A stretch of 64,000 nt of DNA from a virus (taxonomy: Duplodnaviria; Caudoviricetes), in the IMG/VR virus record IMGVR_UViG_3300013105_000843, positions 1 through 64,000 of that record. The stretch is one strand, 5' to 3'. Shown here piece after piece: positions 1 through 63,255 of this stretch. Each line of letters begins with the position of its first letter. Within the stretch, counting starts at the first letter, position 1. The translations under genes and the position numbers were made by a program. Below the pieces are notes generated by a model that saw nothing but the letters and a program-made list of their open reading frames with translations, was not told where the DNA came from and made no database searches.

Positions 1-673
1 TTACAGCAGCAGCTCGAGCCGGCCGGCCATCACCTGCTGCAGCAGCGCGCGCCGCCCAGTCCGGTGGTCGGTGACACCGTCGGCGCGGTAGGTACGCACC
101 TTGTCACCCCTCTGGCCCGTGCCCACGTGCGCCTTGCGCTGCTGGTTCTCGGCGCGCTGCGCGGCGCCGGCGTAGTGCGCCTGCACGCGCTCGCGTAGTG
201 TCGCCATCGCCACGCGTCGATTCGCTTCCTGCGTGCGTTCGACCTCTGCCTTTACCTCGATTCCAGTTGGCCGATGAATTAGGACTACACACGTTTCTCG
301 CTTATTGCGATTTTGCCCGCCCGGACCCTGACCGCGAGTGATGCGCGTGTGAATGTCGGTCTCGCGCAGCTCTGGCATGGCCGGCACGCTGCCTTCGAAG
401 ACGGCGACGGTAACGGTGGAGGTATGCACGCGGCCACGTCGTTCGGTGGGCGGGACGCGCTGGTGTCGATGGCCACCCGCCTCCTGGAGCAGCGGCATCA
501 GTATGGCCGCATCGCCTTCCAGGAGAAGGAGGTCAAAGATGGCTCCGCGCCTCGAGGGATGCCTTCACGCCATGGCGCGCGGCATAGGCTTGGTAGATGG
601 CTGCCTGGTCGTGAACCAGCAGCTTCGCATCGTCGCCGCCTTCCGCGGGACGGATTTCAATCGTAAGCTTCAT
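1..673 (-). CDS. RF1-like peptide chain release factor lacking domain 1, with a probable +1 programmed frameshift at 538-532 (about 223 aa)
   Basis: ATG at 673 gives MKLTIEIRPAEGGDDAKLL (RF domain 2 start) up to CAT CTT TGA C. The +1 frame continues DLLLLEG...QRVPPTERRGRVHTS (PxT motif)...GPGGQ and ends at TAA 1-3. Confidence 0.88.
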
Positions 674-850
674 GACCATCTCCTGTAAATGGTGAAAATA
701 GTATATGAAGTAATCACGAGCATGTCCAGCAATCGCGTAATGTGCAATGAAAAACCCCGCGTCGCGCGCGGGGTCGAGTAGCGGCCTGACGTGCTCACGC
801 GGCCGAGGACTGTGCTGCTTTCGTAGCCATGTGATGCAGTCCGCGCGGGC

Positions 851-3293: not shown

Positions 3294-3738
3294 TCGCGAC
3301 CACCAGGTTAAGCAGGCGGTCGCGCGAAGACTCGAGGCTTTCTTCGTGCCCGAGATAGCCGATGTCGCCATGCAGGCGCACCGTGCTGCGCGAAGATGCG
3401 CCGTGCGTTGCCGCGCTCATGTCCTTGCCCGTCCTCTCACTCACCGGCACTGCGTCGCAAATCCACTTGGACAGTTCGGGGCGCAACGGGTCGACGTCGA
3501 CGTTGACGACCTGCACCACCCGGAATGTCCGCGTGCCGCGGTCGTTACCTGACATCGTCTGAACGCGCACCAGATACTCGGGCACTGGTCGCCGGTTCAG
3601 TTCCAGGAGTGTGCCGGCCGGCAGGAGCGCACGCATCGCGCGCAGCATCACGTCGGCGAGCGCAGCGCGCGCGGCGTCGGCTTCCTCGCGCTTGACCAGC
3701 GCGGCCTGGAAAATCTGTTGAGCTTCGGCGTTGTTCAT
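3286..3738 (-). CDS. Hypothetical protein
   Basis: 150-aa ORF overlapping both neighbours. Confidence 0.7.
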   Translation of the reverse strand: MNNAEAQQIFQAALVKREEADAARAALADVMLRAMRALLPAGTLLELNRRPVPEYLVRVQTMSGNDRGTRTFRVVQVVNVDVDPLRPELSKWICDAVPVSERTGKDMSAATHGASSRSTVRLHGDIGYLGHEESLESSRDRLLNLVVANA

Positions 3739-9506: not shown

Positions 9507-9623
9507 CTGTTTCAGCGCCGGCCCCTGCGCAACAGAGTTCAGGTCTGTCCGCTTGAGCCCATCCGATTTCAGCAAAGGCCTACTGGATTCGGCCCCGCCT
9601 ACGTCCAACCGACGCCTACTCCG
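9507..9623 (-). ncRNA. Unclassified structured RNA, CGGAGUAG...UGAAAC family, copy A
   Basis: Conserved end motifs flanking stem GCGUCGG/CCGGCGC. Confidence 0.65.
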
Positions 9624-9629
9624 AAATAC

Positions 9630-9706
9630 TGGTTGCGGGACGCGGAATTGAACCGCGTATCTTCAGCGTATGAAACTGACGGGGTAACCGGCTCCCTCTA
9701 CCCGCG
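9630..9706 (-). tRNA. tRNA-Met(CAT) with initiator-like acceptor stem
   Basis: CGCGGG...CCCGCAACCA (C1:A72), loop TT-CAT-AC. Confidence 0.85.
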
Positions 9707-9764
9707 AAGCGTTCGTGCTTCGTTGCAAAAGCACTTTGGTTTGGGTAAAACCGAAATGCTCTCG

Positions 9765-10935
9765 ATGGTGTACAGGCCTGAGACTACAGCCTGACGCGTC
9801 ACGACTTTCGAGCGGATTATCACGCGGCTTGCGGCCGGCGTTCCCACCTTGTCCACCCCGTCAAACGAGGTATCGTGACATGGCTGCCGTTTCGGGTTTC
9901 CCCAGGGAAGGCGGTCTCCCTGTCGCGATGCACTATTCGATTCTCGTCCTACCGCCGACCTTGCGAGCCGTTCGAGGTTGCAGCCTCTACGTGCGGATTC
10001 CAATCAACATCCTTCACCTTGCGGGCGTCAGACGCCTGCCTTCACGTTTCCGTGGACAGGATTAAGCCATTTTCATGCATCACCGGACACGGCTTTGCGT
10101 TTTTTGACAACGAGGATTTGAACCCCACCGTCGGCTTAAGAGGCCGATGCTCTACCGAATTGAGCTAATTGCATCCACTGCCACGAGCGTGTCCAAGAGC
10201 TTCACCACCTTTTGAGCGGCAAAATACTCCTCGCGGCATGTCTTTCGCCTGCCGGCTACTCAACGGTCCTTCTGGACTCCGTGCCATTTCTGGCCCGAAC
10301 CCCATTGAACTGCGCTGTCGCCATTGAGGGCATCTACGACAACAGCGCTACCCTTTCCCGTACAGGTTCGCATGTTGGTTAGGCTGGACCGCGGCACCAC
10401 CCGCTGCTGTTCGCCACCTCGGGTTCCCGTCCTTGCGGACGGCCCGGCAGGTAACGTTCTTCCCCAGCCACATGCTTCTCCCTTATCGCCACCGCTTTGG
10501 TCAGTGACGCGCTCCTTTCGGAGCCGGGGAGGCTTGCATGGATTGACCGCACCGGTCCCCGAAGAGACCGGCATGGCGCGAGTTAGTGGACTACCTCGCT
10601 TTGACCGCATTGCTGCGGCTGTCCTCCCCATGCGGAGTTGTCAGTGTCTCGCCGCGCAACGTGCAAGCACGCTACCCGGCCAGCATCGACGCGTTGCGGA
10701 GCCTTTCGGACTGGGCGCCTTACGGAACCCCACCGCATACGAGCTGACGTCGTCGAATCCTTGTTCTGCCAGACCGTCTCCGGCCGCACGCTCAACCTTC
10801 ACCGCTGTCCTGGTGCGCTGTCTTTCGACACGGGCCTCCTTTCGGTTAACCCAAGCGTGACGGGTGTTGTCTGCCGGGCCAGAACCCGACGGCGCAGCTG
10901 AAGCATCTGACGATGCACAATCGGGCACCGCCCGA
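9765..10935 (-). ncRNA. Very large structured ncRNA, GOLLD-like, with an embedded tRNA-Lys(CTT)-like element (10105-10174)
   Basis: About 1.15 kb with no credible ORF, dense GNRA/UUCG hairpins and its own promoter. The 3' part resembles recalled GOLLD motifs. Boundaries are approximate. Confidence 0.65.
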
Positions 10936-10945
10936 AAGAGAATGC

Positions 10946-10973
10946 AGTATAGCATTATAAATGTCGATGTCAA
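10946..10973 (-). promoter_or_regulatory. Sigma70 promoter for the large ncRNA and distal tRNAs
   Basis: TTGACA-N16-TATACT with extended -10 TG. Confidence 0.8.
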
Positions 10974-10992
10974 CACATTTACAATGAAATGT

Positions 10993-11069
10993 TGGTCGGC
11001 GTGACAGGCTTCGAACCTGCGACCTCGTGCTCCCCGAGCACGCGCTCTACCTGACTGAGCTACACCCCG
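10993..11069 (-). tRNA. tRNA-Pro(GGG)
   Basis: CGG...CCGACCA acceptor, loop TC-GGG-GA (atypical C33). Confidence 0.82.
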
Positions 11070-11077
11070 ATGAAACC

Positions 11078-11157
11078 TGGCCTCCCCGACACGATTCGAA
11101 CGTGCATGCGTCCATTTAGCCTTTCGACGGCTTCGGAGGCCGAGGGCATACGGGGAG
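11078..11157 (-). tRNA. Atypical tRNA-Arg(CCG)-like RNA with no D arm in the normal position
   Basis: 7-bp acceptor with GCCA, perfect T arm, CGGC-CTCCGAA-GCCG. A D-loop-like segment lies 3' of the anticodon arm. Confidence 0.65.
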
Positions 11158-11165
11158 AGCGAAGA

Positions 11166-11258
11166 CTGTTTCAGCGGCGCGACTCCTCAGCCCCAAATGG
11201 CTGGCCGCCCGGGAGGTTGCTGGTCCCGGGCGCGCGCGTTTTCACGCCGCCTACTCCG
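11166..11258 (-). ncRNA. Unclassified structured RNA, CGGAGUAG...UGAAAC family, copy B
   Basis: End motifs plus stem GCGGCGUGA/UCGCGCCGC. Confidence 0.65.
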
Positions 11259-11311
11259 ATATGCGTTGCTTCAGACCCACGCTGCACGTTGCCGGCGCGA
11301 AAGGCGAAAAG

Positions 11312-11401
11312 CAGTTTCAGTGGCCTGAGCATTTAACCAGCGTTCCAGGCTGGGGCGGCAGGAGGTTGCAATTCTGTCGCGGCATCAGTCCACCTACTCC
11401 G
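11312..11401 (-). ncRNA. Unclassified structured RNA, CGGAGUAG...UGAAAC family, copy C
   Basis: End motifs plus stem GUGGACUGA/UCAGGCCAC. Confidence 0.65.
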
Positions 11402-11407
11402 ATGAAT

Positions 11408-11493
11408 CTGTTTCAGCATCCCGGGGTGACCGACAGCGTTCAAGGCCGGCGGCCGCACGGGCATGGAGCCCGCGTCCCGAGATGCCTACTCCG
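11408..11493 (-). ncRNA. Unclassified structured RNA, CGGAGUAG...UGAAAC family, copy D
   Basis: End motifs plus stem GCAUCUCGGG/CCCGGGAUGC. Confidence 0.65.
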
Positions 11494-13662: not shown

Positions 13663-13778
13663 TGGAGGAGACGGCAGGGCTCGAACCTGCGACCACGCGC
13701 CAAACCAAGTGCGGACGTTAGCGCCGAAGCGCAGGGCGCCGCACAGGGGCCGTGCTCTACCGACTGAGCTACGTCTCC
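13663..13778 (-). ncRNA. tRNA-like RNA whose anticodon arm is replaced by a long UUCG-capped stem
   Basis: Perfect acceptor, D arm, T arm and UCCA end. Insert GTGCGG...GCGC-TTCG-GCGC...CCGCAC. Confidence 0.75.
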
Positions 13779-17984: not shown

Positions 17985-18089
17985 CGCTGCCCGCTGGATT
18001 TGAACCAGCGCTGACGGGCGCCCGCCACCTGGAATGGATACCAGTCTCCCTCTGCAATGAGGTGCTCTACCAGCCTGAGCTAGAGCAGC
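17985..18089 (-). ncRNA. tRNA-like RNA with 6-nt anticodon loop and two-hairpin variable region
   Basis: Canonical D and T arms, CCTC-ATTGCA-GAGG, extra hairpins, no CCA. Confidence 0.6.
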
Positions 18090-18105: not shown

Positions 18106-18183
18106 TGGTGCCGTCGGCGTAGATTCGAACTCGCGACCCGCCGCCTACAATGCGGCCGCTCTACCGGGCTGAGCTACGACGGC
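18106..18183 (-). tRNA. tRNA-Thr(TGT)
   Basis: Loop AT-TGT-AG, CCA, bulge in T stem. Confidence 0.88.
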
Positions 18184-18397
18184 AGTGGAAACTTCACTGT
18201 ATCACTTTGTAAAGCCACATCGTCAAGGATGAAGCTTTAAAAAGTGCGGAGGTTGTCCCTCCGCATGCCCATCTTACTCCTGCGTTTCCGCCGCAGTTTC
18301 ATACCGGGACCCCGCCCATTCGCCATGTTTTTTGCCGTGCTGGCTGCGGTCTCGTTCCGCATGACACGTTGTTAGCCTGGTTGCGCCACTGGGGCAG

Positions 18398-18438
18398 AAA
18401 AGCAAAAACCCCTGGGTGCTTGCGCATTCCCAGGGGTT
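18398..18438 (-). terminator. Attenuator terminator upstream of the tRNA array
   Basis: AACCCCTGGG...CCCAGGGGTT followed by TTTGCTTTT. Confidence 0.85.
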
Positions 18439-18463
18439 CCTTGAACCTTTGTGGATGGACTCT

Positions 18464-18646
18464 TTAGAAGATGCCCGTCCCCTCGGAATGCGCTGCGGCT
18501 GACTTACCCTCGCTGGGCTGATAGCCAAAGCGCGGTGCCGTCGACGCAATGATGGAATCATTCGACAACACGTTCTGCCCGCGCACGGCTGCACGCCACG
18601 CCATCGGCGCGGTACAGCCATTTTGGAGGTGCAGAGCGAGTTTCAT
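18464..18646 (-). CDS. Putative attenuator leader peptide (60 aa)
   Basis: AAGGA RBS; lies between promoter and terminator; 3' end contains the antiterminator sequence. Confidence 0.6.
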   Translation of the reverse strand: MKLALHLQNGCTAPMAWRAAVRGQNVLSNDSIIASTAPRFGYQPSEGKSAAAHSEGTGIF

Positions 18647-18706
18647 TTCGAACAATTCCTTCAATCAATTCGGTTAAGGTCCGACAAGTTGGACCCGATG
18701 TGAGCA

Positions 18707-18734
18707 AGTATAGCGAGCATTGGGCTCATGTCAA
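18707..18734 (-). promoter_or_regulatory. Sigma70 promoter of the tRNA array
   Basis: TTGACA-N16-TATACT. Confidence 0.82.
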
Positions 18735-18875
18735 CGCTCTCGTGCAAAAATTTTCGAACTATTTTCAGATTCAGGTAGGATGTTTAGGCTAACCCATTGA
18801 AATTGAAGCATAATTAACGAAGCGCGCCTGCTGTGAAATCTTCACAACAGGCGCACGGATTGAGGCTGTTCAGCT

Positions 18876-20711
18876 TCAACTCTCGTTTTCGAAGGTGTCG
18901 GCTAGCTCGGTGAGCACCACTTCCAGCGCCTCCGGCCCCACCTCGAACGGGCTCTTCACAATCTTCAGCGGCCCGCGCGCCGCGTCACCGGTCATCGTCG
19001 CGACCGGCTGGGCAGTGCTCGGCTGCTCAACCTGCGGCGCGCTCGCCAGCACAGCGGCCGCCTGTGCCGCCCCTCCCTGCGGCGCCGGCTGACCGGCGGG
19101 GGGCGCGAGCTTGAGCATCGGGCGCGCTTCGAAGTCGCGGTCGGCGTAGTGTTCGGCGATGCGCTCGCGCTTTTTCGGGAACGCCAGCTTGACGCGGCAA
19201 ATCGGGTAGTCGCCCTTGAGCTTGAAGAAGCCATGGAGGTCCTTGAGCCGCTGCAGCTGGACCGGCATGACCGCGCGCTCGGTCTGCACCTGCTCGTTCA
19301 GGCCGGCGGAGCCTCCCGATTCCGATGAGGACTCGCCGCGCATCATGCGCGATACCTCCTTGTCTCCAATATAGGTGGAGATGTATTCGGAGGTCTCCGG
19401 GTCCGAGCAGCGCAGCACCAGCCACGATGACAGGCACGACAGGATGGTCTGAGCGCCCTTCTCGCCGTAGCGGTCCTGGAGTTGCGAAATCGCCTGCAGG
19501 CCAATGAGCAGGCACCCGCCCTTCTTGCGGGCCTTGGTCGCGAAGGCCTCGATGGTCTGCACCTTGCCGATGGACGCGAACTCGTCAATGATGAGCCACA
19601 CCCGACGCCCGCTATTCTCTGGCAGCGACAGGATGGTCCGCGCCGCGACGTCGAGCGCGCACGAAATCATGTTGCGCAGGGAGTCGAGCTGGTCGTCGCG
19701 GTACGTGAGGAACAGGAATCCGGGTTTGCCCGCACGGATGAACTTCGACACCGAGAACGGGTCGTCGCGGTCTTCCAGGTAGGCGTAGGTCGCCAGGTAG
19801 TTCGACGCGATGGTGCGAATCGAGCCGAAGGTGCGCTCGGAGACGAGCTGCGCGGCCGCCGGCGTGCCGGCCAGAAACTGCGCCAGCTCTTCAATGGGCG
19901 CGGCCTGCACGTAATAGAGCAGCTCCTTGACGGACAGGCGCTTCAGCTCATCGAGCTTGCGCAGCACCGAGGTCACGAACGTCTGGGCATACCCGTTCCA
20001 CTCCCGAGCTTCACCCTCGCCGTCGGGGACCATCGACTTGGACATCGCCTCGTCGTGCCCCGGACCGGAAATCTCGGCCGTCGGCGACCAGGGGGCACAG
20101 CGCTCGTCGAACGGGTTCAGGATGCGGTCACGCCCCTCGCGGTAGTAGCGCGAAGCAAACTCGCCGCCTGAGTCGACGACGAGCGCGATGTCGCCGCGCG
20201 CCTCGATATCGTCGAGCAGGCGCGTGATGGCGACCGACTTGCCGGTGCCAGTCGAACCCACGACCAGGAAGTGATAGGGCTCGGCGCTGCGCGGGATATT
20301 CACGCCGGCAATGGCCAGGCTTTCCTCGAAGTCAGACTTCGGCAGCGCCGACGCTGTCTTTCGATTGACGTCCGAGGGCGTGCTGACCGTGGCACCCCGG
20401 CGCAACTTCTCGCGCGGGCGCAGCCGGCGCGCCAGCAGGTTCAGGACAGGGGCGATGCCGGCGCCGAGCGCGAGCCAGGCCACGGTGACCCCGGTAGGGA
20501 GCGTGCCCGGCAATGCGTGCAAGCCCAGCAGGGCCACGCCGATGGCCGCCGCGTAGAGCATCAGGCGGGTCAGCTTCGCTGCGAGCGGAAACCAGTTCAC
20601 CCAGCGTGCGGCAAGCTTGCGCCAGACCGTAAAGAGGGAATACAGGGCAAAGCCGAACAGCACGAGCTGCGCGGGCTCGCTATCCAGCCAGGAAAGGATG
20701 GCTTCGTTCAT
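18876..20711 (-). CDS. traD: Type IV secretion coupling protein (TraD/TrwB family)
   Basis: N-terminal TMs, HFLVVGSTGTGKS (Walker A), LNPFDERC, WLIIDEFASIG (Walker B), GLQAISQLQDRYG. Confidence 0.9.
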   Translation of the reverse strand: MNEAILSWLDSEPAQLVLFGFALYSLFTVWRKLAARWVNWFPLAAKLTRLMLYAAAIGVALLGLHALPGTLPTGVTVAWLALGAGIAPVLNLLARRLRPREKLRRGATVSTPSDVNRKTASALPKSDFEESLAIAGVNIPRSAEPYHFLVVGSTGTGKSVAITRLLDDIEARGDIALVVDSGGEFASRYYREGRDRILNPFDERCAPWSPTAEISGPGHDEAMSKSMVPDGEGEAREWNGYAQTFVTSVLRKLDELKRLSVKELLYYVQAAPIEELAQFLAGTPAAAQLVSERTFGSIRTIASNYLATYAYLEDRDDPFSVSKFIRAGKPGFLFLTYRDDQLDSLRNMISCALDVAARTILSLPENSGRRVWLIIDEFASIGKVQTIEAFATKARKKGGCLLIGLQAISQLQDRYGEKGAQTILSCLSSWLVLRCSDPETSEYISTYIGDKEVSRMMRGESSSESGGSAGLNEQVQTERAVMPVQLQRLKDLHGFFKLKGDYPICRVKLAFPKKRERIAEHYADRDFEARPMLKLAPPAGQPAPQGGAAQAAAVLASAPQVEQPSTAQPVATMTGDAARGPLKIVKSPFEVGPEALEVVLTELADTFENES

Positions 20712-20850
20712 TTTGGTCCAAGCACTGAAAGGTCGCGTAGTGCGACCGCCGGACCGGTATAGGCAGATGAGCGAGGGATGGCGCGCGACGCGCCGCGCAA
20801 ATGAAAACGCCACCCGCGAGAGGGTGGCGCATGCGTGGTGGCGCGCTGGC

Positions 20851-62984: not shown

Positions 62985-63255
62985 ACTTTGGGCGACCGGG
63001 CAATCGCGGCCCGGTGGCAGTTTAGGCAACTGCCAGATAACGGCTGTCGTTAGCAGTTATTTTTTGCGTCTTTCGCCGCGCGAAACGCGCCGCCGGGCAT
63101 GCGCCTGCCCTCGTTGCCGCCTTTGCCTTCATGCGCTGTCAAAACCTGTCAGCCCCATCACATGCACACCTGAGACAGATGCGCAGGTGGTGGAGCTGGC
63201 GAGGAACTCGAACCCCACTTCCAACACACGTCAACTCTGGAGGAGTTACAACGAT
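62985..63255 (-). ncRNA. ssrA: Circularly permuted two-piece tmRNA
   Basis: Acceptor piece ending GGTTCGAG...CAGCTCCACCA (63188) precedes the coding piece starting GGGGCTG (63156). Tag ANDSRYLAVA* at 63054-63022. Confidence 0.9.

Follow-up and report, generated by a model that had tools for sequence, protein, structure and literature searches.

A conserved leader reading frame containing all 20 amino acids and a proposed ribosome-dependent attenuator at the head of a conjugative element's tRNA array

How a mobile element controls a large array of tRNA genes is the question raised by this locus, in which a short reading frame containing every amino acid precedes 33 tRNA genes. The window, that is, the whole stretch of DNA analysed, comprises 64,000 nucleotides (positions 1 to 64,000 of IMG/VR record IMGVR_UViG_3300013105_000843). 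The tRNA genes extend from 18183 down to 7485, together cover all 20 amino acids, and begin with tRNA-Thr(UGU) on the minus strand (18183-18106). An earlier note described, ahead of this array, a promoter, a 60-codon leader ORF with all 20 amino acids and 39 different codons, and a strong terminator about 25 nt after the stop codon, whose 5' arm is complementary to the last codons of the leader. It inferred, by the logic of amino-acid operon attenuation, that a ribosome finishing the leader keeps the array off, whereas stalling at almost any earlier codon allows read-through, making the leader a general sensor of translation failure rather than of one amino acid.

The elements described in the note are all present where it placed them, on the minus strand. 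The promoter P1 consists of a -35 TTGACA (18734-18729), a 16-nt spacer and a -10 TATACT (18712-18707), with 11 of 12 consensus matches; the transcription start, inferred and not mapped, is predicted at about 18700. The transcript would begin with a 5'-terminal hairpin (18696-18677, GGGUCC...GGACCU), and many homologues have a 5' hairpin of different sequence at the same place, for which a role, possibly in stability, is only inferred. A Shine-Dalgarno-like AGGA (18660-18657) lies 10 nt before the AUG at 18646. The leader ORF (18646-18464) consists of 60 sense codons plus UAA, with 20 amino-acid kinds and 39 distinct codons. The intrinsic terminator T1 (18436-18398) starts 27 nt after the stop codon and is formed by an 8-bp G+C-rich stem (18436-18429 with 18416-18409), a 12-nt loop, AAUGCGCAAGCA, and U5 (18408-18404) followed by GCUUUU, with a hairpin energy of -19.6 kcal/mol; it was missed by a consensus terminator scan only because of its 12-nt loop. 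Near the end of the ORF, UUCCGAGGGG (18488-18479) pairs 9 of 10 with CCCCUGGGAA (18436-18427), and the pairing extends to 14 of 15 between 18493-18479 and 18436-18422. Between the stop codon and T1 lies a short conserved hairpin, GGUUC-AAG-GAACC (18447-18435), which overlaps the first two bases of the T1 arm; GGUUC/GAACC, GGUUUC/GAAACC and GGUUCC/GGAGCC variants occur in homologues, and no role is assigned to it.

Taken alone, the composition of this one leader is unremarkable. Among random open 60-codon frames of the local composition, 6.8% have all 20 amino acids, 45% have 39 or more codons and 4.8% have both, and among 60-codon pieces of the window's real genes 3.7% have all 20. The observation becomes significant only through its conservation in relatives, of which about 20 related loci (numbered with the prefix L) were found in Burkholderiales-type conjugative elements. 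L002 (Novimethylophilus) and L003 (Achromobacter) were found through the coupling protein, and L129, L130, L132 and L133 through a DNA pattern taken from RNA-2, a conserved structured RNA downstream of T1; both searches were blind to the ORF, and all six loci have an intact leader with all 20 amino acids. Profile searches added 19 further peptide entries, including ones named from Burkholderia multivorans and Paraburkholderia aspalathi, bringing the total to 27 distinct leader peptides. Every genomic context retrieved shows the order TrwB/TraD coupling-protein gene, promoter, leader, T1, RNA-2 and tRNA array, with the same TTGACA-16/17-(G)CTATACT promoter in the homologues, and a tRNA-Thr is the first gene of nearly every homologous array, L002 starting instead with tRNA-Ala. 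DNA similarity searches of 18230-18760 against phage and plasmid collections found nothing, as did scans of viral contigs with the coupling protein and with the leader peptide, and a 14-mer from RNA-2 gave only chance hits in viral contigs, none of which carried the second RNA-2 motif. Within the family of L003's genome, a sample of 151 genomes searched with the RNA-2 model and 401 searched with a DNA pattern returned only that genome itself, so the element is rare among species representatives.

All 27 distinct leaders (54-66 aa, down to under 30% identity) contain all 20 amino acids. With the family's own composition the chance of this is 7-19% per sequence, and column shuffles give P = 1e-4 for 7 representatives under 50% identity and 0 of 20,000 for 10 or 14 representatives; the homologues are related, so these statistics overstate independence, and neither a phylogeny-aware simulation of the completeness statistic nor a test on a larger set of homologues collected without reference to the ORF was made. 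Cys, Asp, Ile and others sit in different columns in different lineages; the set is kept complete although the rare residues move between positions. In 18 of 20 leaders the complete set lies upstream of the switch segment described below, in 47-59 codons, for which the chance is 3-5% at 47-51 codons and about 11% at 59. The control codons thus match the regulated product, since this window's array has tRNAs for all 20 amino acids, but there are no runs of control codons, and most amino acids occur once or twice, which gives low sensitivity to mild starvation compared with classical leaders. Codon diversity, whose conservation in homologues the earlier note had put forward as a check on its 'codon-sampling' idea, is only weakly supported: it is above expectation in 10 of 16 leaders at P < 0.05 and not in the rest, while all leaders use somewhat rarer codons than their neighbours, and the case does not rest on it. 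Codon matching does not discriminate either, as array tRNAs read 59 of 60 leader codons but also 95% of the codons of the neighbouring coupling-protein gene.

The leader ORF evolves like a frame that is read. An open frame of 54-66 codons is kept in all homologues, dN/dS is 0.2-0.6 in 37 pairs, with one further pair at 0.83, and a GGA at about -10 to -13 is kept in nearly all homologues, L129 and L130 lacking an obvious one; translation itself was not measured, no ribosome-profiling or RNA data were analysed, and neither expression, termination at T1 nor read-through was observed directly. These features, together with a strong promoter, a strong terminator and annotation by gene callers as a hypothetical protein, would also fit an ordinary small-protein gene of the conjugative element whose position and full amino-acid set have nothing to do with tRNA expression. 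This reading is considered very unlikely. The peptide matches no Pfam family and is probably not a folded protein, as AlphaFold gives pLDDT 53 and no secondary structure, and its conserved motifs AW, GYQP and HSG coincide with RNA elements, namely hairpin H1, a small hairpin and segment R2. H1 (18612-18596) lies inside codons 12-17, with arms CCGCGCC and GGCGUGG around a GAU loop, and is the source of the AW motif. The RNAalifold consensus shows compensatory pairs in it (CG 11, UA 3, AU 1 at one pair and GC 9, AU 2 at the next), and the third base of the Ala codon, a synonymous position, covaries with the 5' arm. The completeness of the amino-acid set is maintained beyond column conservation, the end of the ORF is complementary to the terminator arm in every homologue, and the ORF always lies directly ahead of RNA-2 and a tRNA array. 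Two other kinds of frame are not credible as genes: a 115-codon ORF in another frame (18621-18274) and short ORFs starting at the AUG in the T1 loop cross T1 and RNA-2 and merely follow RNA conservation.

The switch is formed by three segments that can pair in two exclusive ways. Segment R2 (GCGCAUUCCGAGGGG, 18493-18479, codons 52-56) ends 12 nt before the stop codon and is the 5' strand of the antiterminator. Segment R3 (CCCCUGGGAAUGCGC, 18436-18422), comprising the T1 5' arm plus the first 7 loop bases, pairs either with R2 (14 of 15) or with R4, the T1 3' arm. In 20 of 20 homologues the best partner of R3 lies 15-29 nt before the stop codon; the duplex is -25 to -31 kcal/mol in 13 of the 20 and -13 to -25 in the others, while the next-best site elsewhere is -11 to -21. 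The pairing is weak in L002 and in the upstream units of the tandem pairs described below. In the alignment, 77.6% of cells pair, against 23-45% with slid partners, and 3 pairs show compensatory change; compensatory changes occur in two clades (CAUCCUGG/CCAGGAUG, and an A-U pair in this window's clade), and L144 has a perfect CCGAGGG/CCCUCGG. T1 is present in all homologues and conserved with covariation, its hairpin ranging from -12.8 to -22.8 kcal/mol and being -16 or stronger in all but L002, and the terminator and antiterminator states differ by only -6.8 to +3.0 kcal/mol. H1 is a candidate RNA-polymerase pause or synchronising hairpin, but pausing was not assayed, and a conserved partner that sequesters R2 (a classical segment 1), sought by eye and by alifold, yielded only clade-specific candidates, so whether a synchronising structure operates here is left undecided. 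Two relatives, L136 and L138, carry two leader-T1 units in tandem with no promoter between them, so T1 must be read through for the second unit to be made.

In a further alternative, the unit is a structured small RNA of about 300 nt acting as RNA, with an ORF that is incidental or only serves to destabilise or stabilise it. The transcript folds far better than shuffles (z = -5.0), contains several conserved helices and ends at a strong terminator, and attenuator-derived small RNAs with trans functions are known (rnTrpL, PMC7968998). This alternative is also judged very unlikely, because the open frame is kept despite under 30% peptide identity, synonymous changes exceed non-synonymous ones, the SD-like GGA is conserved, and the amino-acid completeness has no RNA-level explanation. 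A trans role of the terminated leader is not excluded, but it would be in addition.

The leader does not directly abut the tRNAs, a point absent from the earlier note. RNA-2 (18372-18242) lies between T1 and the first tRNA, occurs once per locus at 107-151 bits, and shows 28 consensus pairs, 12 of them with compensatory change. It has no Rfam family, and a suggested resemblance to the RNase P specificity domain was examined only to the extent that no RNase P hit was found. RNA-2 ends in a second terminator-like hairpin, T2 (18265-18245), followed in this window by CUUUUU, and downstream lies a possible weak second promoter (18226-18196), read by eye as TTGACG (18226-18221) followed by GATACA after 17 nt or TG-n-TACAGT after 19 nt. 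The attenuator may thus be real but mainly gate RNA-2, as a regulatory or tRNA-binding RNA ending at T2, with the tRNA array of this window transcribed from its own promoter downstream of T2; in keeping with this, RNA-2 is strongly conserved and is also found without tRNAs in L128, and a similar promoter-like site, TTGACA-17-TGTACT, occurs in the close relative L139. This possibility is considered unlikely. The U-run after the terminal hairpin is absent in L003, L133, L141, L142, L144 and L128, and is also the 5' arm of a longer conserved hairpin (CUUUUUCAAGG...CCUUGAAAAAG) seen by eye. The candidate promoter fails the consensus scan, and its like occurs only in L139; no recognisable second promoter was seen in most homologues, which were read by eye except for L138, which was scanned, so that at family level P1 is the only promoter found ahead of the arrays. 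The array of this window also has at least one internal promoter of the same type (10973-10946), and whether its tRNA genes depend on read-through from P1 is not settled by these observations. The evidence that T1 is read through comes from the tandem units of L136 and L138.

The explanation favoured here, with fairly good confidence, is a ribosome-dependent (leader-peptide) transcription attenuator at the head of the tRNA array of an integrative conjugative element. In this view, a strong constitutive promoter makes a leader RNA of about 300 nt, whose 60-codon ORF is translated. If the ribosome keeps pace with RNA polymerase, it is on the last codons or the stop codon and occupies or unwinds R2, which lies in the last nine codons, while R3 and R4 emerge, so that T1 forms and transcription ends. 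If the ribosome lags or stalls anywhere upstream, R2 is free and captures R3 as soon as it is made, T1 cannot form, and polymerase reads on into RNA-2 and the tRNA genes. Because the stretch upstream of R2 holds every one of the 20 amino acids, shortage or destruction of any aminoacyl-tRNA, or general ribosome inhibition, should open the gate, and the tRNAs then made would restore decoding and close it again by negative feedback. R2 ends 6-14 nt before the stop codon, and a ribosome parked at the stop covers only its 3' part, so masking would depend on timing and on trailing ribosomes. The analysis itself establishes the anatomy, its conservation, the alternative pairings, the selected completeness of the amino-acid set and, from its pattern of evolution, the read frame, whereas the polarity and timing of the switch, the pause role of H1 and the arrival of read-through transcripts at the tRNAs are inferences. 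The interpretation offered in the earlier note, a ribosome-dependent attenuator sensing translation in general, is supported by this evidence.

Among studied systems, the mycobacterial whiB7 uORF attenuator, a general translation-stress sensor, works in this way (bioRxiv 10.1101/2023.06.02.543512). A long uORF of diverse composition lies upstream of a Rho-independent terminator; efficient translation lets the terminator form, and inefficient translation (antibiotics, or depletion of amino acids, tRNA or synthetases) gives an antiterminator and read-through. The amino acids sensed are set by the composition of the uORF, a single Trp codon suffices, and the M. smegmatis uORF has 19 of 20 amino acids. 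There is no sequence relation between the two, and the present leader is not a whiB7-type uORF: that uORF is Ala-rich (25-40%), varies in which amino acids it lacks, and controls a transcription factor in Actinobacteria, whereas here Ala is 10 of 60 residues, the hosts are Betaproteobacteria-type, the set is complete in all 27 members, apparently under selection, and the regulated product would be a tRNA array plus RNA-2, feeding back directly on the sensed quantity. Classical leader-peptide attenuators of amino-acid operons (trpL, hisL, pheL, leuL, thrL and the multivalent ilvGMEDA leader) likewise have a promoter-proximal translated leader, an intrinsic terminator, an antiterminator using a segment near the ORF end and an early hairpin that could be a pause site, with stalling giving read-through and completion giving termination (for theory, see PMC1183508). 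They have 14-32 codons with runs of one to three control amino acids and regulate biosynthetic enzymes, and the present leader is not a member of the Rfam His_leader family (RF00514; 17.2 bits against a threshold of 49, E = 3.5); other Rfam hits have E of 2 or more, and no leader family passes at gathering thresholds. In the antibiotic-sensing attenuators of B. subtilis bmrCD (PMC4191407) and vmlR (PMC9226507), and in P. aeruginosa PA5471.1-armZ, a slowed ribosome on a short leader ORF prevents terminator formation, so that general translation trouble switches on a remedy; those leaders are short, tuned to drug-stalled ribosomes and control pumps or ribosome-protection factors, and none is reported to hold a complete amino-acid set or to control tRNA genes. 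T-box riboswitches couple the supply of charged tRNA to read-through of a terminator upstream of translation-related genes, but they bind one uncharged tRNA directly and need no ribosome or ORF. No T-box (RF00230) match was found at E up to 10 in 18150-18900, nor at gathering thresholds in the window or in four relatives, and only RNA-2, not the leader, has any hint of a tRNA-binding module, which was not examined. Large clustered sets of tRNA genes for most or all amino acids, proposed to aid expression or to act as anti-defence, are carried by Variovorax megaplasmids (PMC7313664), by the Acidithiobacillus conjugative element cited there and by mycobacterial tRNA array units (PMC12803027); neither a term search of the Variovorax paper nor the abstract of the mycobacterial one revealed a leader peptide or attenuator, and full-text literature searches found none for any tRNA array.

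A more far-reaching reading, possible but tentative, is that the all-20 leader is a universal integrity sensor for the cell's decoding capacity. A single codon for each amino acid would be enough because the relevant insult would be near-total loss of one tRNA species, for example through tRNase toxins, colicins or anticodon nucleases used in bacterial warfare and phage defence. When any one tRNA is destroyed, ribosomes would stall in the leader, the gate would open, and the conjugative element would supply a complete spare tRNA set, possibly assisted by RNA-2 as a tRNA-elbow-binding module. This would be a self-resetting 'translation insurance' that benefits both host and element.

In conclusion, the array is probably switched on when ribosomes decode slowly. 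Leader-peptide attenuation is textbook for amino-acid biosynthesis, and uORF sensing of general translation stress is known for whiB7, but no published case was found in which tRNA genes are under such control, nor a leader whose defining, evolutionarily maintained property is that it contains every amino acid. If confirmed, the finding would provide a compact natural reporter of global translation speed and an unusually clean test bed, in which deleting one singleton codon should blind the switch to one amino acid. It would also explain how mobile tRNA arrays are kept silent, and cheap, until decoding fails, and would give a direct handle on why conjugative elements and phages carry tRNA sets, whether for supply matching or for counter-defence.

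On the minus strand, every element recorded in the earlier note is present as described. The promoter TTGACA-16-TATACT (P1) lies at 18734-18707, followed by an ORF of 60 sense codons plus UAA at 18646-18464 that contains 20 amino-acid kinds and 39 distinct codons. A strong terminator (T1), consisting of a hairpin and a U5 tract, starts 27 nt after the stop codon, its stem pairing 18436-18429 with 18416-18409 and its U-run occupying 18408-18404. The 9-of-10 complementarity between 18488-18479 and 18436-18427 is real, and it extends to 14 of 15 between the segments R2 (18493-18479) and R3 (18436-18422). For this one sequence, the composition is not remarkable: among random open 60-codon frames of local composition, 6.8% have all 20 amino acids and 45% have 39 or more codons. 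The case therefore rests on comparison with relatives.

The window belongs to a 129.6-kb record classed as a provirus. The gene just upstream of the promoter (18876-20813, minus strand), however, encodes a type IV secretion coupling protein of the TrwB/TraD type (TrwB_AAD_bind, E = 9e-111), and the relatives of the record lie in bacterial chromosomes beside TraT and T4SS genes. The element looks like an integrative conjugative element rather than a phage. Downstream lie 33 tRNA genes for all 20 amino acids. Inside this array of a high-G+C conjugative element sits a GOLLD RNA (9775-10239, minus strand; Rfam 189.6 bits against a threshold of 150), preceded at 10973-10946 by a second TTGACA-16-TATACT promoter of the same type as P1. 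Rfam's tRNA model also matches three minus-strand stretches (13666-13778, 17985-18089 and 10104-10173; 39-47 bits) that ARAGORN does not call; two are 105-113 nt long, which suggests tRNA-like genes with inserts, and one lies inside the GOLLD region. A permuted (two-piece) tmRNA gene at 63022-63253 (minus strand) scores 73.8 bits and could be either the host's ssrA marking the integration site or a copy carried by the element.

A search with the coupling protein found two species genomes, Novimethylophilus kurashikiensis (locus L002) and Achromobacter anxifer (locus L003), in both of which the gene is followed by a tRNA array. A DNA pattern from the conserved RNA downstream of T1 (RNA-2) found six metagenome loci. 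Both routes were blind to the ORF, and every locus that reaches far enough upstream, except one in a low-G+C contig (L128), has the same promoter, an open frame of 54-66 codons and a T1-like terminator. A profile of these peptides found 14 clusters, including proteins named from Burkholderia multivorans and Paraburkholderia aspalathi, and an exhaustive profile search added five more distant ones. Eleven further contexts were examined as DNA and one more by its gene list only. All show the order coupling protein (sometimes plus one or two genes), leader ORF, then a stretch without called genes; where DNA was available and reaches far enough downstream, that stretch holds RNA-2 and a tRNA array that starts with tRNA-Thr.

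The leader evolves as a frame that is read, but the peptide is probably not a functional protein. A GGA about 10 nt before the AUG is kept in nearly all loci, and pairwise dN/dS is 0.2-0.6 in 37 pairs, with one further pair at 0.83; synonymous sites change faster, which RNA constraints alone would not produce. This evidence is indirect, and translation of the ORF is inferred. There is no Pfam family for the peptide, and AlphaFold with the family alignment gives pLDDT 53, pTM 0.11 and no secondary structure. The few conserved residues sit on RNA elements: ‘AW’ is the 3' arm of a covarying hairpin, H1 (18612-18596), in which the third base of the Ala codon (G, U or A) changes together with its partner in the 5' arm; ‘GYQP’ is a small GGCU/AGCC hairpin; and ‘HSG’ is R2.

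All 27 distinct leaders contain all 20 amino acids, although identities fall below 30%. Even with the family's own, unusually even, composition, the chance of this is 7-19% per sequence. Shuffling residues within alignment columns, which keeps conserved positions, yields an all-complete set in 1 of 10,000 trials for 7 representatives under 50% identity, and in 0 of 20,000 for 10 or 14 representatives. Rare residues occupy different columns in different lineages, with Cys using 10 columns, Asp 7 and Ile 14, and in one close pair (L003 and the leader peptide P0006) Cys has moved from one position to another. In 18 of 20 leaders with DNA, the full set already lies upstream of R2, in 47-59 codons, and the two exceptions lack only Glu there; the chance of a full set is 3-5% at 47-51 codons and about 11% at 59. 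The homologues are not independent, and their relatedness inflates these statistics, but the pattern is what a device that must ‘taste’ every amino acid would show. Codon diversity, whose conservation among homologues was proposed beforehand as a check, is raised only modestly and not in every member. Matching of the leader codons to the array's anticodons does not discriminate.

In all 20 homologues tested, the best partner of the T1 5' arm plus adjoining loop bases, anywhere in the leader, starts 15-29 nt before the stop codon. Duplex energies are -25 to -31 kcal/mol in 13 of the 20 and -13 to -25 in the others, whereas T1 itself is -12.8 to -22.8 (-16 or stronger in all but L002) and the next-best site is -11 to -21. 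On the alignment, 77.6% of cells pair, against 23-45% when the partner is slid by 1-3 columns, and three pairs show changes on both sides. The clade of L133, a locus found with the RNA-2 pattern, has CAUCCUGG/CCAGGAUG where others have CAUUCCGG/CCGGAAUG, and L144, another relative, has a perfect CCGAGGG/CCCUCGG. The pairing is weak in L002 and in the upstream units of the tandem pairs. With the 3' arm of T1 (R4) kept unpaired, the predicted fold forms the long R2:R3 helix, and the terminator and antiterminator states differ by only -6.8 to +3.0 kcal/mol.

Two relatives, L136 (2721-3174) and L138 (1609-2066), carry two leader-T1 units in tandem behind one promoter, each peptide with all 20 amino acids; the upstream units have the weaker R2:R3 pairing (-17.6 kcal/mol). 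The only promoter found in L138 lies before the first unit, and the second unit can therefore be made only by reading through the first T1. This argues that T1 is a conditional stop.

Directly behind T1 lies RNA-2 (18372-18242, minus strand), a conserved structured RNA of about 130 nt and unknown family, with 28 consensus pairs, 12 of them with compensatory change, and no match in Rfam. Its invariant stretches are GGAACGAGACC, AAUGGGCGGRGUCCCGG, UGAAAC-hairpin-GGAGUAAGAUGGGCA and a covarying terminal hairpin, and the UGAAA/AGUAAG pair flanking a hairpin with a 7-nt loop recalls T-loop or loop-E modules. A covariance model finds exactly one copy per locus, always at the array head. It also finds one (107 bits) at 664-796 (plus strand) of L128, a 242-kb low-G+C metagenome contig with no tRNA genes in the 6.3 kb examined, where RNA-2 lies behind two small ORFs and a terminator, so RNA-2 is not restricted to tRNA arrays. 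In this window, the terminal hairpin is followed by CUUUUU (T2), but in six relatives it is not. In the others, the U-run doubles as the 5' arm of a longer conserved hairpin (18196-18244, minus strand, and homologues; CUUUUUCAAGG...CCUUGAAAAAG in relatives), and in other clades a CUCGA-UGA-RUCGAG hairpin takes its place. In L144, two elements bounded by GGAGUAGG ... CGAAAC lie between RNA-2 and the first tRNA (3420-3660, plus strand) and resemble the small-RNA family recorded in the earlier note at 9507-11493 of this window. A weak promoter-like site (18226-18196) precedes tRNA-Thr here and in one close relative only. At family level, P1 is thus the only recognisable promoter ahead of the array, although in this window, with T2 and a possible second promoter, an additional layer cannot be excluded.

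The system works like classical leader-peptide attenuators and, most closely, like the whiB7 uORF, but it is a member of none of the curated families. What differs is the complete, maintained amino-acid set and the regulated product. Full-text searches found no account of attenuators on tRNA arrays, and a term search of the Variovorax paper on plasmid tRNA arrays (PMC7313664) showed no mention of regulation in the passages found.

The interpretation in the earlier note, that a completed leader keeps the array off while stalling permits read-through, is supported, and we consider the attenuator reading likely but not certain. The polarity follows from the geometry and matches the experimentally studied whiB7 uORF, where efficient translation gives termination, stalling gives read-through, and a single Trp codon is enough for sensing (bioRxiv 10.1101/2023.06.02.543512). 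There are no expression data for the system described here. In the proposed mechanism, P1 fires constitutively, the ribosome loads on the leader, and H1 may pause polymerase until the ribosome arrives, a role that is inferred. If decoding is fast, the ribosome would be on the last codons or the stop codon while R3 and R4 emerge, so that R2 is occupied, T1 forms and transcription stops; a ribosome at the stop codon, however, masks R2 only partly. As most amino acids have single codons, sensitivity to mild starvation would be low. If decoding of any codon upstream of R2 is slow, R2 would be free to capture R3 before R4 exists, and polymerase would continue into RNA-2 and the tRNA genes. New tRNAs would then relieve the stall and reset the gate.
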